This document shows, in pieces, positions 7,427 to 61,166 of a stretch of DNA of 64,000 nucleotides; the stretch's first letter is position 1, and each line of letters starts with the position of its first letter. The translations under genes were made by a program, and so were the position numbers. Source of the DNA: a virus. The stretch covers positions 1-64,000 of the IMG/VR virus record IMGVR_UViG_3300050821_017626. One strand, 5' to 3'. A model generated the notes under the pieces. That model was not told the origin of the DNA, made no database searches, and saw only the letters and a list, made by a program, of their open reading frames with translations.

Positions 7427-7590
7427 AGGGTTCCGGTTTAACGAGAACCGGCAACGAGTTTGTAAGGAGCTTTCTTCTCACAGTGTGGCATAGTTATTCG
7501 CGCCCATACTAACCCAACGGGTTATAACGCTACACGTTCTATCCCTGTTTTCCGCCAGGACGTGACCCTGGTTGCCAACTGCTGATGAGC

Positions 7591-34269: not shown

Positions 34270-37043
34270 GGGTTAGTCCTCCTCGGGAGAGAGCAGCGTA
34301 TCAACAATATCACAGGCAAGGGAGAAGCCGGCATCGGCCGTTACCTCGTCAACATAGAGTCGATGAGTAGGGGGCAGATCGGTTAGAGTGGGCAGATCGT
34401 AAAGACGCCGAAGGAGAGTGGGCAGGGATTCGGGAGAGACGGAACAGCGGATGCCTGTTGCTAGGACAGCTCCTTCAGGGAATCTACTGCAAGGATCTAG
34501 ACGGCGCTCTATGGGTTCGTAGGTATCGGTTTCCTGGCGATAGCACGCCTCAAGATGGGAGTCGATGCCTTGATTGACAGCGGCAATGACGGCCGCAGCG
34601 TCGGAACTGACGAGTTCCATGCGGTAGGGCTTGCCTTGCATGGCCGATCTGATCTGTTCGTAAGTGACGGTGCCATGGTCGTCAATGTAGCCGATTATGT
34701 TGGTGTCGGTCATGGTCATGGTCGGTTCCTCTTTCTAGCCGTTGTCAGACGACCGATAGTAGTTTGGGCATGGCCACACCTCTGTGTTCTTTGGCAAGCG
34801 GGATATCCCTGCCCATTCTTTGGCGCGTTCCCTTGCTTGTGCCTCCCCTACTGGGGAAGAGAAGCGGAACGTCATGGCATTCTCTGATTCGGGGAAGCGA
34901 ACCCACCATAAGACGCAAGTGCCGAACATAGTTGTGTCCTCCTTTCCGAGTCGTGCGGTGATCAGCCGACCTTTCGCCATGTGAGTGTTGACGCGGCCCG
35001 TGCCTCCTCCACTTCTTGACAGCGTAGAAGCTCTTCCTCGGTCGCAAGGCGGGCGACATAGGCGGTGCGGGGACCATGAGCGCCCGTGAGCATGTGGGCG
35101 CGCTTCTCGGCCGTCTCTTGGTCGTACAGATCGGGTGTGGCCATTCGGCGAATGAGCTTGCCCCCGGAGTAGAACTGCGCTTCAACGACGAAGGTCGGTT
35201 TCATCGAGTCCACCCTTCCCCGGTAGGAGCCCAATCGAGTCCGCCGGTATGGCGGCTGTTGAGAAGATGGGCCGCTAGGCGAGCGAGCCACGCGAAAGGA
35301 AAGCGGTAGATGGGACGGCCGTCGGATGGGCTGAAGACTTCATAGCGCATGTCAAGATCCTCCTCTTAGGCGCGTTAAGCGAATTGTATAGGGCGGTTTG
35401 GAGTGCAAGCTGGACAGAATCCCTCGGAACTCAAGTCGCTTGTGGCAGCGTAGAAGGTGCATCCTGCAGCGTTACACTGCAGCAGCAGTTCCCCGTCAAC
35501 GGCCGCTAGTGCCTCCTCACGGGTGGAGTATACTTCGTCGGTCTCCTCTTGGTCGGAAGATTTCCAAACAATCCAACAGTCGTGGAGACCTACCGACATA
35601 TCTCCTGCTTCGAAGTAAATCTGCGGGTAGCCGTACGGGTAGCATGTGCCGAGTGGGTAGTAAACGACGTTCTTAACATGTGAAGCGCGAATGAACTTCA
35701 CCATCAGCGAATCTCCACTTGGAACTTGGTCGGGACGGCAAGGAAGCGCTTGTCCCATCGCTGCATGAAGGCGCGCATTTTGGCAGTAGGGGAGAAGGAT
35801 GGTCCGGTTCCCCAGTGATTGATTGTGACGGAGCATAGGTCCGGCATGGCGTAAACTCTGGTTGTCGAGAGGTACTCTCGGATGAGAGCGCAAGCGATGG
35901 GACAGTTTGAGGGGGATACACCTCCTTCTTGCTGACGGAGTTCAGTGGCTCGGTCGATATCCTGCTGGGTGACTGAGATGTTACGCTTCATGGTCGGTTT
36001 CTCCAGTGTGTATAAGTGTGTATAGCAGTGTGTAGGGTTACTTGCCTGTGTCGGGTGGGTTTCCTTTACATCCGCCCGCGTACCACATGGTACGGCCTTC
36101 CCAATATGAGCAACGCTCATAAGCTTTTTCTAAAGATTCTTTCAATCCTCTGTTTTCCTCCTGAAGGGCAAGTACTTGGTCAATCGCCTTGTCGGCCATG
36201 GCCTGGTAATGTCTGGCTTGATTTTTTGCATCTTGCAGTTCGAGTCGAATCGTTTCGTTGTCCTTCATGGTGTCCTCACAAAATCAACAGTATGAATGTG
36301 TAACCCGTCCTTTGAACGGATGGGAGTAACCTTCACTTGCCAACGTTGCCCACATTTACAGGTTCGCTTGACGACTAAAGTAGCTTGTGACATGAGAGGA
36401 GTTCCCGGCAGTATCCGATCACAATCGGGACACTTAAAGCATACTTTCGTAGTGGGCATCTTCAGAGTCCCCTGTATGGGTTTCGAGTGGAAACATTGAC
36501 AACCAGAGTCTCAGTCTGAGATTCAAAGGTTCTATTCGTTGTATCCTGTGTCCAATGAATTCCTACCCCCTTTCAAGCCACACAACGTGGCCCGCGAGAA
36601 GGTTCCGGCGATGGGCCATCAGCTCTTTGGGGGTGAAGAGGGAGGAAGCAGGTTCCTGGCCGACGCCAGACCAACAGAGATCCGGTTCGCAGATTTCGCA
36701 AGTGGCCTCATCCTCACAGCCGCAGCCGTAGTCACAGGAGAGGCAATGGGAGCGTTCCTCGGCCATGGCGTCAAGGATTGCGACTTCAAGCTTCGCCTTA
36801 TGGGTCCGGTTGATTAAGGTATGATCTTCCGGGTAGGCCAGGATAACAGCGACCGACGAGGGTTCGCAGTCGCGGTGCCAGTAGGAGGCACAGTAGTACG
36901 TATAGCGGCCCATGGTCAGTTACTCCAAACCGCGTTAGCGGCGAAGGTCGAAAGAAGGTAGCCGATAAGGAAGCCAGAGAGAACGACGGTGAGATAGCGG
37001 AACATGGTTGTGCCTTTCTGCAGTAGGTATCCTGCGACTCGTT

Positions 37044-37096
37044 CCCCTTTCGCCCATCGCTGGGCTCATCAGTACCCGACTAGCCGGGTAGAGGGG
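37044..37096 (-). ncRNA. Type III hammerhead ribozyme (HHR-B)
   Basis: CCCCU-C^-UACCCGG(CUAG)UCGGGUA-CUGAUGA-GCCCA(GCGA)UGGGC-GAAA-GGGG; all core nucleotides and three stems present. Confidence 0.92.
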
Positions 37097-37288
37097 TCAC
37101 CGCTCCCGTAAGAGCGGTGAGGTGATGTATACATTGACGGTGGAGCCGTATTGGTCGCGAGTGGGCTCCAATTCAACAGTGACGACTTCAACAGGGTCGA
37201 CGCGGTGAGGGAACTTGATAACTTCCGAGTCGATCATGGTCCCCAGCCGACCGTCGAAGGTGATGAGTTTCCCGAATACATACTTCAT
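37097..37288 (-). CDS. 63-aa protein enclosed by two hammerheads
   Basis: ATG at 37288, 9 nt after AAAGGGG; the stop codon abuts HHR-B. Confidence 0.65.
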   Translation of the reverse strand: MKYVFGKLITFDGRLGTMIDSEVIKFPHRVDPVEVVTVELEPTRDQYGSTVNVYITSPLLRER

Positions 37289-37297
37289 GGTGTCGTT

Positions 37298-37349
37298 CCC
37301 CTTTCGGCTGTCGCCAGCCATCATCAGCGAGCGCTATTGCTCGGAGGGG
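37298..37349 (-). ncRNA. Type III hammerhead ribozyme (HHR-A)
   Basis: CCCCU-C^-CGAGC(AAUAGC)GCUCG-CUGAUGA-U-GGCUG(GCGA)CAGCC-GAAA-GGGG; one extra U after A9. Confidence 0.88.
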
Positions 37350-38008
37350 TTCCGCTGCCTTCACCGTCTCATCCTGTCGCATTCAGGCGGGATTGTGGCA
37401 GCGGGGCCGCTTCTGGCGTGTTGACCGCGTACCACGGCAACCGCCAGGGAAAGCGCGCTATGAAGTTCCTCGCTCTGCGTTGTGCAAACTCGGCAGCGAG
37501 CGAACGTTGTCAAGGTTCCGACGGCAGGCTCTCATCCTGCGCGCTATGCGGTGCCTTCCTTATATAAGGAAGGGCCGCGTTGTTTGGGTTAGCGGCGGTT
37601 GCGCCTTCTAGGCAAGCGAACAACTATCTCGCCAGGGAATGCTTCGCCATTGGCTATACGATCAGCCAGCAGCATACGCATTCGGCCGATTTCTCCCGCT
37701 GTTCCTGATACTTGCCCAACCTTGGGCGCCCAAAGAATAGCTTTCCGCATATCATCCTCTCTAGCGGCGGCTGATTGTGTAAAACGGGCAGCCAGCGTTA
37801 ACCCAAACGATGATACCGACGATGCTGGCCAGCAGAAGGCCGGCTTTCGTGACTACTGCGAACAGCGTTGCTTCCATTCCTCGTTCCTCCTTGCGTCATA
37901 ACCGTTATGGTTATCGGTTGGTCGGTCAGGTTTCTTTAGGTCGGTTGGGTGAAGTAATCCTCTCCGATTGTCCCCGAGGGGAGGGAGAGGAGGAGGTCAC
38001 TCCATCCT

Positions 38009-38065
38009 GTGCCTTGCTCTTCGTTATACGCGGGCTTGCAACCGCCGTCGGCCGAGTTAAGGCGC
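38009..38065 (-). ncRNA. Type P1 twister ribozyme
   Basis: GCCU-U^AA-CUCG-GC-CGACG-GCGG-UUGCAAGC-CCGC-GUAUAA-CGAA-GAGCA-AGGC. P1, P2, P4 and both pseudoknots (UGC/GCA, GC/GC) can be formed. Confidence 0.82.
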
Positions 38066-38358
38066 CTTTAGGCGCTTACATCTTGCTTTCTGCTTTCCGC
38101 AGATCGTCCCCCAACGACATGAGTTCGTTGTGTAAGGCAAGATACTCTCCACTCAGGTAAGGAGTTGCTCGAAGCAACTGGTATACCCGATCAATCTCCG
38201 CACATATTCTCTTGAGATCCATCAGTTTCTCCTCGGTCGGTTGGGTGAACTCTGCTGCTCACATAGGGATTATTCCGCACATCCCGTGCCATGTGAGATA
38301 CTATTTTTTGGGTTTCTGCGACCGTGCCTGTACCGTGCCTGTGGCCCAACCCATCTAT

Positions 38359-38388
38359 AGTATAGCACAGGGTGACGCTATGGGTCAA
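38359..38388 (-). promoter_or_regulatory. sigma70-type promoter of the leftward block with a tandem operator-like repeat
   Basis: TTGACC-N18-TATACT with extended TG; GGGTGACGC repeated at 38370 and 38392. Confidence 0.65.
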
Positions 38389-38498
38389 TATGGGTGACGC
38401 GTTGGGTCAGGGTGAGGTGAGGGAGGGGGAGAGCTGGTGGGGGCCAGGATGGGGAGGAGAGGGGGAGCGGAAGGGATGGAGGCACGATACTGTTCGCA

Positions 38499-58181: not shown

Positions 58182-61166
58182 ATGCCTCTCCCCGAGAGAA
58201 CCGTAAAAATAGTCGATGCTAGTGGCAACGACATTAATTCACTGAATCCGCTTCCCACAACGGGCGGAGGCGGCGGTGGTGGTGGCACGTCTCAGGCGGA
58301 CAACAGCACCTTTACTGAAGGGACTACAAGCGTCACCCCGATTGCCGGTGAATACAATACCTCGGCAGGCGCGGCCACCTCGGGAAAAGCGGCAGCGGTT
58401 CAGATCACCCAGAATCGTGGCCTCCACATCAATCTCCGCAACGCGGCCGGGACGGAAATTGGCACGGTGGCCAACCCAGTGCAGGTGGCCGGAATCAGTG
58501 GCGGCGGGTCCTCTTCGGTTTTTGCCTCTCAGGTGGGAACCTGGAATGTTGGCATCACGGGCACAGCAGCCGTTACCCAGTCGGGAGGCTGGACGGTCTC
58601 CGCCAACCAGGGAACCGCAGCCGCTAAGTCTTCCGCGTGGCCGTTTATCCTTACCGACAGCGTTCAGAATCAGGCGGGTATCACTGCAGCCGGGGCGCTC
58701 AAGGTCGACGGCAGCGCTGTTACGCAGCCGGTATCAGGGACGGTGACAGCCAACGCTGGCAGCGGAACTTTCACTGTTGGTGGAACGGTGACGGCAAATG
58801 CGGGTTCAGGCACTTTCGCCATTCAGGCCACTGCTGGGGCGCCTGCCTCCGCGCAGCTTTCTGATGGTGCTGCCTTCTATGTTGCCGCAAAAACGGGACA
58901 ACTCCCGACCGCTTTGACGGGCAGCGGCAATTTGAAGGTATCGCTGGCAGAAAGCACGGCAACGCAAGCCGTTAGCGGGACCATCACGGCTAACCAGGGA
59001 ACGGCGGGTGGATCTTCCTGGCCGGTAGCCTTGCCGGGCACCGTTTCTGCGGTCAACTCCACGACCGTTACTCTCCCTAGCAGCAGCGTTTTTACCGGAA
59101 CGTCCGAAGACATTTCCGGCTTTGCCTCTGTGGCCGTTTCGGTATTTACCGACCAGAACAGTGCGGCCGGCGGTCTTTCCCCACAGTTCTCCTCAGATGG
59201 CACCCACTGGGATTTCGCTGGCTCCCACACGATCTCTTCTTCGATTGGACAGGTATTTACCTGGCCGGCACAGGCTCGTTTCTGGCGAATTGTCTACACG
59301 AATGGAGCACAAACGCAAGGAACGTTCCGCCTGCAGACGGTTTATCATCCTGTTGAGATCAGTCCGGCTACCCGCTACACTTTGCAGGATGGGGATGCTA
59401 ACGTTAGCACCATGCGGTTCGGTGCCAACCTTTGTGCCCTGAACACTTCGTCACAGTGGGATCGGATGCGGGGGTCGGTTACAGGAGGCTTGTGGGTTCA
59501 GGGTCCGGCGGTAACCGGAGCGCCGGTTGCTGGGAACCCAGTCTATGTGGGTGGTAAGGATGGGAGTGGAAACCTACAACCGTTCACCATTGCCAACAGT
59601 CGCCTCGACGTAAACGTTGGTAAAATTCCCGGCACCATTTCCGCAGTCAACTCCTCGACGGCAACCTTGACCTCCGGCTCCGCTTTTACTGGCACTTCGG
59701 AAGATGTGTCGGGATATGGGTCGATCACGATCAACGTTTTCGCGGATCAATCCTCGGCCGCAGGTGGTCTCTCTCTACAGTTTTCTTCAGACGGGACCCA
59801 TTGGGATGTCTCAATGGGCCTTACTGTAACTTTGAATGTGGGAGCGTCCTACACTGTTGCTCCCGAGGCTCAGTTCTTTAGGGTTGTATATACGAACGGC
59901 GGCACCAACCAGGGAACATTCCGGCTGCAGACGGTTTACCACCAGACAACGGCTCAGCAGTATACATTCTTCCAAGATGTAAACGCCTCCATAAACCCCA
60001 CTGCAGCGGGTCAGCGAGTGATGGCTGATCTTCTTATTCAAGATCCCGTGGGCGGGGTGACGAACCGGGCGCGAGCGGCGATTGCGTTGGTAGCGGGCGT
60101 GGGTGGTGGAGCGCACCTGGGGCAGGCAGCGGCTCTTTACGATATCAGTTCCACTAAATTTTGGCCGATGGAGAATACTCCTTCGGTGACGGCTACAACG
60201 GGGCAGAACCTGCTGGGCGTCGGGCCTTGCCTTTGGGATCTTGTGGGCACCACGAACTTCGTCAAGCAGGCCGGTGATGGTTCCGGGAGGACCATGGTGG
60301 TGGGGCCGGCGGCTATCGGCGCGGCGGCAGCAGCGAACCCGGTTCTTCCAGGCATAACTGATGCCAGCGGCAACGTGCAGTATGTCAAGCAGACTACGGC
60401 AGTTACCGGGACGACGGGTTTGGGGCTGGCGGCGGCGGGACCGTGCCTTTGGGATCTTGTGGGCACCACGAGCTTTGTGAAGCAGGCGGGAGATGGGTCG
60501 GGCCGGGCAATGGTAGTTGGTGCGGCAGCGGCGGGTTCAGCGGTGGCAGGGAACCCGGTGCTCCTGGCCGGCAGTGATAATACCAACGCTCAAACTCTGT
60601 CCACGACAACCACTTCTGGCGCAGCTATCCCCAACAACGGCAAGGGCATCTTGGCGACTGCCTTGTGCAGCTTTCATAGCTCCAGCACCTATTTCCCAGC
60701 GGGCGATTTCCAGGCAGATGGAAACAACTCACAGGGGATGATCGGGGCGCAGCCTCTCATTTATAATGGCGTCAACTGGGATCGGCCCCGGAACAACGTC
60801 GATGTTACTCTGCTGGCCTCCGCCGCGCGCACTACCACGCAGACGAGCGCGGATATCGTGGCCTATAATTGCCAGGCCATTATCTTGACTCTTGATGTCA
60901 CCGCTACGGGTGGCACGATAAGTTTGACACCGACGATCAATTATAAAGACCCCGCAAGCGGGAAGTACATTCAATTGCTGGCCGGAACCACCGTGGCGGC
61001 AACAGGAACGACAACGTATGTGATCGATCCGAGGTTGGTGAGCGGAACCCCTCCCTGGACGAAGACGGTTCCTTCGGCGTTAGGTAGGATCTTCCAGGTG
61101 GTAATTACGGTTGGAAATGCGAATTCACAGACCTACAGCGTAGGTTATACGCTGGTGCCCACATAA
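58182..61166 (+). CDS. Large virion structural protein with internal repeats
   Basis: Gly/Ala/Thr/Ser-rich; duplicated ~110-aa module (PGT.SAVNS...FRLQTVYH) and duplicated GPCLWDLVGTT.FVKQAGDGSGR. Confidence 0.65.
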   Translation: MPLPERTVKIVDASGNDINSLNPLPTTGGGGGGGGTSQADNSTFTEGTTSVTPIAGEYNTSAGAATSGKAAAVQITQNRGLHINLRNAAGTEIGTVANPVQVAGISGGGSSSVFASQVGTWNVGITGTAAVTQSGGWTVSANQGTAAAKSSAWPFILTDSVQNQAGITAAGALKVDGSAVTQPVSGTVTANAGSGTFTVGGTVTANAGSGTFAIQATAGAPASAQLSDGAAFYVAAKTGQLPTALTGSGNLKVSLAESTATQAVSGTITANQGTAGGSSWPVALPGTVSAVNSTTVTLPSSSVFTGTSEDISGFASVAVSVFTDQNSAAGGLSPQFSSDGTHWDFAGSHTISSSIGQVFTWPAQARFWRIVYTNGAQTQGTFRLQTVYHPVEISPATRYTLQDGDANVSTMRFGANLCALNTSSQWDRMRGSVTGGLWVQGPAVTGAPVAGNPVYVGGKDGSGNLQPFTIANSRLDVNVGKIPGTISAVNSSTATLTSGSAFTGTSEDVSGYGSITINVFADQSSAAGGLSLQFSSDGTHWDVSMGLTVTLNVGASYTVAPEAQFFRVVYTNGGTNQGTFRLQTVYHQTTAQQYTFFQDVNASINPTAAGQRVMADLLIQDPVGGVTNRARAAIALVAGVGGGAHLGQAAALYDISSTKFWPMENTPSVTATTGQNLLGVGPCLWDLVGTTNFVKQAGDGSGRTMVVGPAAIGAAAAANPVLPGITDASGNVQYVKQTTAVTGTTGLGLAAAGPCLWDLVGTTSFVKQAGDGSGRAMVVGAAAAGSAVAGNPVLLAGSDNTNAQTLSTTTTSGAAIPNNGKGILATALCSFHSSSTYFPAGDFQADGNNSQGMIGAQPLIYNGVNWDRPRNNVDVTLLASAARTTTQTSADIVAYNCQAIILTLDVTATGGTISLTPTINYKDPASGKYIQLLAGTTVAATGTTTYVIDPRLVSGTPPWTKTVPSALGRIFQVVITVGNANSQTYSVGYTLVPT

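Follow-up and report, generated by a model that had tools for sequence, protein, structure and literature searches.

The window analysed here is the first 64 kb (64,000 nucleotides) of a 96,261-nt virus record of IMG/VR (IMGVR_UViG_3300050821_017626), which is linear, with a completeness of about 79%. Three ribozymes of two classes, a type-P1 twister and two minimal type III hammerheads (HH2 and HH1, in the order in which they would be transcribed), lie on its minus strand within 1 kb, between minus-strand open reading frames (ORFs) bearing Shine-Dalgarno sequences. A ribozyme-punctuated phage operon is a phage or prophage gene block with at least two co-oriented intergenic ribozymes, and three are found at this locus. 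It is probable that all three are genuine and that they cut a leftward polycistronic message at gene boundaries without a host nuclease. The features of the locus, all on the minus strand, are given below in the presumed direction of transcription.

38370-38387 and 38392-38409, minus strand: two operator-like 18-nt direct repeats (TGACCCAnnGCGTCACCC) at 22-nt spacing, one of which spans the promoter -35
38388-38359, minus strand: sigma-70-like promoter with an extended TG (TTGACC-18-TGcTATACT), matching at 10/12
38076..38222, minus strand: first ORF of the operon, 48 aa, with GAGGAG upstream and without known family
38062..38075, minus strand: hairpin GCGCC-UAAA-GGCGC right after the stop of the 48-codon ORF, -8.8 kcal/mol
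38011..38063, minus strand: type-P1 twister ribozyme without P3, from a full-length RF03160 alignment
37761..37877, minus strand: 38-aa ORF, a predicted membrane peptide with an AAGGAGG ribosome site
37589..37750, minus strand: 53-aa ORF
37350..37588, minus strand: non-coding spacer of 239 nt, from the 53-codon ORF to HH2
37352-37404, minus strand: compound hairpin at the 3′ end of the spacer, 2 nt before HH2
37298..37349, minus strand: HH2, minimal type III hammerhead, predicted cut after C37344, new 5′ end 37343
37097..37288, minus strand: 63-aa ORF between the two hammerheads, an orphan
37097..37120, minus strand: 10-bp hairpin CACCGCUC(UC)-UUAC-(GG)GAGCGGUG, made of the last codons and stop of the 63-codon ORF and abutting HH1, -17.2 kcal/mol, z -3.9
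37044..37096, minus strand: HH1, minimal type III hammerhead, predicted cut after C37091, new 5′ end 37090
36563..37005, minus strand: next downstream ORFs, of 29 aa (membrane peptide) and 116 aa

An earlier note on this DNA had claimed three ribozymes of two classes at minus-strand gene boundaries, which Rfam alignment, a descriptor search, shuffles and folds bear out. The new 5′ ends that it predicted at 38058, 37343 and 37090 follow from the alignments, and the promoter that it placed at 38359-38388 is confirmed by the match given above. The extent of the twister, given as 38009-38065, becomes 38011-38063 in the RF03160 alignment; the C-A mismatch it reported in P2 is seen, and P3, which it called minimal, is in fact absent. 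A search with the twister-P1 and other small-ribozyme models, which the note had proposed, finds the twister below its gathering score and no further class.

The twister matches RF03160 with 37.5 bits against a gathering score of 67.2 (E 8e-6 over 3.5 kb, 1.5e-4 over the whole window). It is the sole ribozyme match in the window at E<=5 with Rfam in E-value mode. At the Rfam gathering thresholds the window yields zero RNA matches, and the rest of the record yielded no tRNA, no known RNA and no other class of ribozyme. P1 (GCCU/AGGC, 4 bp), P2 (CUCG/CGAA, with three Watson-Crick pairs and an outer C.A mismatch adjoining the active site) and P4 (GCG/CGC, 3 bp) follow one another in order, a 3-nt linker taking the place of P3. 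In the RF03160 alignment and in that of a second model described below, the U-A cleavage dinucleotide falls between P1 and P2, and the alignment predicts the cut between U38059 and A38058, with 38058 as the new 5′ end. The conserved positions GC…AAGCCCG…AA…GAG are present, as are both pseudoknots, T2 as GC:GC and T1 as UGC:GCA. The six T1 positions are those furthest from the consensus: CCC:GGG has become UGC:GCA, all three pairs being compensated. A covariance model without pseudoknots penalizes this compensated change. The element resembles RF03160 in its P1-P2-P4 topology, U-A site, conserved nucleotides and both pseudoknots, and differs from it in T1 and in the lack of P3. The latter is ordinary, P3 being present in 78% of twisters and missing from 22%, and T1 is also known to vary, as in env22, which has U-A and A-A contacts there (PMC6154101).

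The string made of the loop and T1 of the twister (GTTGCAAGCCCG…GAGCA) occurs in at least 99 IMG/VR contigs, from which complete P1 twisters of 36 distinct sequences could be parsed, all with T1 UGC:GCA. In their alignment 98.2% of cells pair and 16/24 pairs are changed on both sides, a level of pairing and covariation reached in 0/500 shuffles and far from that of slid registers. A model built from these 36 relatives with the window excluded (R1) has one match in the whole genome, the window twister, at 53.4 bits; this score is to be discounted in part, in that the relatives were picked by a window-derived pattern and about 17 nt of it is circular, the parts independent of the search pattern being P1, P2, UAA, GC and AA. 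Four clear phage relatives score 46-51 bits on RF03160, all below the gathering score of 67.2, and in 15 related loci no twister is reported at the Rfam gathering threshold. An entire phage twister subclass, with T1 UGC:GCA, at least 99 IMG/VR contigs and scores of 37-51 bits, escapes standard annotation. The 34 nt upstream of these relatives fold at a mean of -9.1 versus -4.6 kcal/mol, and the start codon of the next ORF lies 10-43 nt downstream. Their loci also hold pistol, type I and type II hammerhead, RAGATH-4 and RAGATH-36 RNAs. For example, a UGC:GCA twister is followed by three pistol ribozymes, one per gene junction, within 2.3 kb of IMG/VR 3300021256_000305 (L014:4259-6535), and in another locus (L046) RAGATH-4, a type I hammerhead, a twister and RAGATH-36 share 3 kb.

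The two hammerheads escape Rfam as type III elements. The type III model RF00008, with a gathering threshold of 48.5 bits that was not reached, gives no match at E<=10 in the 401 nt searched, and the only Rfam hammerhead match is a misaligned type II of 15 bits. Both elements were located with a type III descriptor (stem III strand, U, non-G, stem I hairpin, CUGANGA, stem II hairpin, GAAA, second stem III strand), which finds exactly two sites, HH2 and HH1, on both strands of the 96,261-nt record; widening it to types I and II adds none in the record. Shuffling the genome 300 times with dinucleotides preserved gives a mean of 0.03 matches, and 0/300 shuffles has a match at the observed stem lengths. 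Two further 'CTGATGA…GAAA' sites, at 7582 on the plus strand and 49307 on the minus strand, were rejected as hammerheads, being without a stem II that abuts GAAA.

The core is complete in both copies, with CUGAUGA, GAAA, the A15.1-U16.1 pair and U-C (non-G) before the cut, and for both the minimum free energy (MFE) structure is the canonical three-way junction, alone and with flanks. HH2 has a stem I of 5 bp with loop AAUAGC, a stem II of 5 bp with loop GCGA and a stem III of CCCCU/AGGGG; HH1 has a stem I of 7 bp with loop CUAG, and its stem II (5 bp, loop GCGA) and stem III (CCCCU/AGGGG) are of the same form. HH2 carries an extra U after A9; this insertion is frequent among the type II hammerheads of related phage loci, and one of these hammerheads passes the Rfam threshold. 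The copies have in common ACCCCUC, CGAAAGGGGAACGA and part of the preceding hairpin arm. All pairs of stem I (UACCCGG/UCGGGUA in one, CGAGC/GCUCG in the other) and of stem II (GCCCA/UGGGC and GGCUG/CAGCC) differ, and still both stems are fully paired. HH1 and HH2 are taken to be paralogous. Their stem lengths (I, 5-7 bp; II, 5 bp with the GCGA loop), judged from the sequence alone, would suit the tertiary loop-loop contact that activity at cellular Mg2+ requires.

Stem III of HH2 would have a second part to play. Its GGGG precedes the ATG at 37288 by 9 nt, and no other sequence there resembles a ribosome site. The computed probability that this ribosome site is unpaired is 0.01-0.09 in the precursor and 0.3-0.85 in the 3′ product. 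The same geometry recurs in metagenomes. IMG/VR has 0 matches to the exact hammerhead stem III pattern, and a metagenome scan finds type III hammerheads with the same stem III in 35 contigs, giving 12 distinct well-formed sequences. This set counts for less as support in that it was picked by a window-derived pattern in which GGGG was imposed, while ATG was not. Even so, ATG lies 3-8 nt past GGGG in 10/12. The stems of the 12 relatives vary with pairing kept, as between HH1 and HH2, and clear relatives score 30 bits at best on RF00008. A GC-rich hairpin occupies the roughly 32 nt upstream of the hammerhead in 12/12 (-10.8 to -20.9 kcal/mol, against about -5.8 in control windows) and ends 0-3 nt before it in 10/12, and about 9 nt before it in L115 and L134. 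The upstream stop codon, where found, is 24-33 nt away in 8/10 and 50 nt away in these same two contigs.

One metagenome contig (Ga0172380_10181009, L127:852-1220) has two co-oriented type III hammerheads with a CCCC/GGGG stem III which bracket a 75-codon ORF. The order is stop, hairpin, hammerhead, AAAGGGG, ATG, 75-codon ORF, stop, hairpin, hammerhead, AAAGGGG, ATG, with AAAGGGG-N7-ATG after each hammerhead, and the pair sits downstream of a divergent promoter region. On these features it is the nearest structural twin of the window pair, the encoded proteins being unrelated. From this recurrent order (stop, hairpin, ribozyme, ribosome site, ATG) it seems that the cut would serve to provide folded ends and to unmask the ribosome site, rather than to set the end chemistry.

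What is observed are the motifs with their significance and covariation, the hairpins and the geometry of the ribosome sites; from these the following course of events may be proposed. The leftward message would start near the promoter at 38359-38388, presumably about 7 nt past the -10, and the twister, HH2 and HH1 would cleave it co-transcriptionally at gene junctions. The predicted pieces are one of about 294 nt with the 48-codon gene, one of 715 nt (38058-37344), a single-gene piece of 253 nt (37343-37091) and the rest of the operon. Every 5′ product would end in a stable terminal hairpin and a 2′,3′-cyclic phosphate, and every 3′ product would begin with a 5′-OH followed at once by a compact ribozyme fold. 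For the twister, the predicted 5′ product ends in the GCGCC-UAAA-GGCGC hairpin (…GGCGCCUU>p), the 3′ arm of which shares the first 2 nt of P1. The pieces would gain structured ends, each possibly with a stability of its own. The HH2 cut would also free the AAAGGGG ribosome site of the 63-codon gene; since it removes the masking CCCCU strand, cleavage should favour translation of that gene.

Several points weigh against this course of events, beyond the window-derived choice of relatives already mentioned. The outer P2 pair, C.A in the window twister, is paired in 36/36 relatives (34 U-A, 2 A-U), and given this mismatch the window twister may be slow or dead. It is also the lowest-scoring member of its subclass on Rfam (37.5 versus 46-51 bits), and its MFE structure in context is a competing fold, as computed without pseudoknot terms. 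Unmasking of a ribosome site is limited to HH2, HH1 and the twister having no close start codon: the next one lies 39 nt from HH1 and more than 110 nt from the twister. Should HH1 and HH2 both cleave, the predicted fold of the 253-nt product has the ribosome site paired anew, with the CCCCU at the 3′ end of that product. No close relative of the phage, with which the locus could be compared, was found among GenBank phages by blastn, nor were relatives found in IMG/VR with the 116-aa ORF, the 63-aa ORF or the portal as queries. Transcription and cutting in vivo, and with them the effects on stability and translation, are read from the sequence.

The doubts about the twister lead to the best placed of the alternatives, which we nevertheless regard as unlikely, namely that the locus is partly decayed: only the hammerheads would be active, making two cuts, and the twister would be a dead copy that came with a duplicated leader cassette. 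Its C.A mismatch in P2 is unique among 37 twisters, and its score and the want of a nearby start codon, both given above, point the same way. The first gene is directly preceded by a 28-nt leader (TTCACCCAACCGACCGAGGAGAAACTGA, 38222-38249), which is repeated downstream of the twister (37926-37953) with its ribosome site mutated, a hint at a duplicated leader or gene cassette. Lying just past the twister, this repeat suggests a degenerating duplicated module. Against decay, all other conserved twister positions and both pseudoknots are intact, C.A can wobble, and P2 retains its three Watson-Crick pairs.

It is somewhat less likely again that the cuts serve to lower expression, in the manner of glmS. 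The 5′-OH would mark the downstream RNA for 5′-exonucleolytic decay in hosts with RNase J, or cleavage would part this RNA from translated upstream RNA, and the distal early genes would be attenuated. Such a role would suit the position of the ribozymes, which lie in the initial 1.3 kb of an array of small genes about 12 kb long, and RNase J1 degrades the 5′-OH product of glmS, according to the statement in PMC3328962 that cites Collins 2007. In the relatives, however, a ribosome site and ATG stand a few nucleotides past the ribozyme, which points to a downstream cistron that is expressed after cleavage, and 5′ exonucleases should be impeded by the folded ribozyme that remains on the new 5′ end. 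The glmS case also bears on a statement of the earlier note, that 5′-OH ends are poor substrates of RNase E/J: as far as PMC3328962 describes it, RNase J1 specifically degrades such a product, so the statement is not general and the effect of a 5′-OH depends on the host. What the sequences do show is structural shielding, with a hairpin ending the 5′ products and a folded ribozyme heading the 3′ products. Nothing in the analysis supports the further idea that the ends evade RNA-directed defences.

A circular messenger RNA is a more distant prospect, to which we give little credence. Here both hammerheads would cut, and the 253-nt RNA would refold around its ends as a chimeric hammerhead, held by pairing between the AGGGG of HH2 and the 3′ CCCCUC>p, and would be ligated, either by the reverse reaction of the hammerhead or by a host RtcB, into an exonuclease-resistant message for the 63-aa protein. 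The stem III and flanks of HH1 and HH2 are indeed identical (ACCCCUC and the second shared segment) while stems I and II differ, the MFE structure of the excised RNA, linear or circular, brings its ends together in a chimeric hammerhead, and the L127 locus has the same hammerhead pair with the same stem III. Circularization was already raised as a possibility by Perreault 2011 (PMC3088659), where circular or spliced products of such clusters were sought and none was found. An identical stem III is equally well explained by recent duplication and by ribosome-site constraint on GGGG. Moreover, no RtcB or RNA ligase was found in the record, of the completeness stated above; a circle that keeps the hammerhead fold would recut itself and leave the ribosome site paired; and, the 63-aa ORF having a stop codon and 253 not being a multiple of 3, circularity brings no translational gain. 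If true, DNA phages would have their counterpart of viroid or retrozyme circles, and bacteria a natural circular message that codes for protein.

Finally, chance matches without function can hardly account for the locus: 0/3 elements reach the Rfam gathering score, but the shuffle controls, the E-values, the compensatory changes between copies and across relatives, the shared strand, the gene-boundary positions and the clustering of all three within 1 kb disfavour chance.

Cleavage of the leftward message by three genuine ribozymes, the reading preferred here, has to be placed in its genomic context. Among the proteins of the record are a T4-type portal, a terminase, a serine integrase, an SNF2 helicase and a DnaN clamp, and the phage, which is uncultured, is accordingly a tailed and probably temperate one. 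Tightly packed small minus-strand ORFs with ribosome sites run down to about 26000, and it is from this run and the promoter that the labels 'early' and 'operon' are inferred. Codon-usage scoring failed to tell the coding strand for these very short ORFs, and the strand assignment is based on the ribosome sites, the promoter, the ribozyme polarity and the neighbouring genes. The 63-aa protein has no match but itself among 5.8 billion proteins; a second contig also carries it. Around the promoter, a perfect 11-nt tandem (ACAGGCACGGT x2) lies directly downstream of the predicted start, within 38321-38409 on the minus strand. The tandem and the 18-nt direct repeats look like operator or regulator sites and would fit an operator-controlled early promoter. 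Long C/T-rich tracts are found on the transcribed (minus) strand, one of about 80 nt upstream of the promoter (38400-38480) and one of about 25 nt past the twister (37975-38000).

The spacer upstream of HH2 is itself highly structured. Folded with part of the stop codon (37350-37590, 241 nt), it has an MFE of -99.6 kcal/mol (z -3.5), equalled in 0/200 shuffles, and it opens right after the stop codon, where other junctions hold a ribozyme, with a perfect 10+10 palindrome hairpin (37554-37573). It has no Rfam match at E<=10, and a 22-nt piece of it is without match in IMG/VR. The motif CAGGAUGAGA recurs in it, and decayed hammerhead copies were considered and rejected, since the spacer aligned locally to HH1/HH2 no more closely than to shuffled sequence. 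Possibly the spacer is an RNA that has yet to be described.

Two observations concern other parts of the record. A near-perfect long hairpin or inverted repeat of 62 nt with 24% GC, at about 91,883-91,944 of the record (L004:11983-12044), attracts spurious microRNA matches; it could function as an origin, as a terminator or as a packaging site. In a 994-aa protein (58182-61166, plus strand), residues 732-787 weakly match the diphtheria toxin C (ADP-ribosyltransferase) domain with 23.7 bits against a cut-off of 25; the protein may be a large virion or ejected one with an ADP-ribosylating domain.

Processing without host enzymes, which the earlier note had put forward, stands as the most reasonable role of the three ribozymes, while it is not new, being the published hypothesis for such clusters. 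Clustered prophage hammerheads that flank single genes cleave both in vitro and in E. coli; processing is the role proposed for them (Perreault 2011, PMC3088659). The clusters described there in Clostridium scindens, Azorhizobium caulinodans and Agrobacterium tumefaciens resemble the present one in having co-oriented ribozymes between small phage genes and one gene bracketed by two hammerheads. They differ from it in that the window hammerheads are minimal type III, missed by the Rfam type III model and joined by a twister. The hairpin, ribozyme, ribosome site and ATG layout goes unmentioned in PMC3088659, a text without the terms terminator, Shine-Dalgarno or ribosome binding. Twisters, hammerheads and pistols are known to cluster near phage genes, the purpose of such clusters being still undefined according to Weinberg et al. 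2019 (PMC6765202). The association of twister and hammerhead with each other and with pistol, hatchet, twister-sister and RAGATH RNAs (Roth 2014, Weinberg 2015, reviewed in PMC6765202) is matched here by two unrelated classes less than 1 kb apart on one strand of a phage. There is no difference in principle; the window adds a further locus, from a 96-kb phage that is otherwise unrelated.

The comparison with T7, whose early messenger RNA is cut by host RNase III and which the earlier note had invoked, is apt for the outcome, namely intercistronic cuts in an early polycistronic message that yield hairpin-ended fragments. It fails for the phage, which is not T7-like, given its T4-type portal, serine integrase and DnaN clamp, and for the end chemistry: in T7 a protein enzyme leaves 5′-P and 3′-OH ends, whereas RNA self-cleavage in the window would leave 5′-OH and 2′,3′-cyclic phosphate ends. 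Engineered ribozyme insulators and hammerhead translational ON-switches of the RiboJ type offer another parallel, in which a hammerhead trims upstream RNA, leaves a defined 5′ end and releases the ribosome site. Unlike these parts, the window element is natural. The 3′ strand of its stem III doubles as the ribosome site, and the cistron before it is capped by an upstream hairpin.

Each of the three RNAs falls in a known class, and their arrangement is of a known kind. The layout has been known in phages since 2011 (2011-2015), and the locus is a clean new example of it, not a new phenomenon. The role of clustered phage ribozymes is still a hypothesis 15 years after their discovery. The locus is compact, its 1.4 kb taking in a promoter, five tiny genes and three ribozymes from two classes, and is therefore a convenient construct for testing messenger RNA stability, release of the ribosome site by HH2 and the formation of circles. 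Its contributions are the repeated succession of hairpin, ribozyme, ribosome site and ATG, and evidence that the Rfam thresholds lie above the scores of a phage twister subclass and of minimal type III hammerheads. Since these thresholds miss all three elements as well as the twister subclass and the minimal type III hammerheads, counts of phage ribozymes are underestimates.

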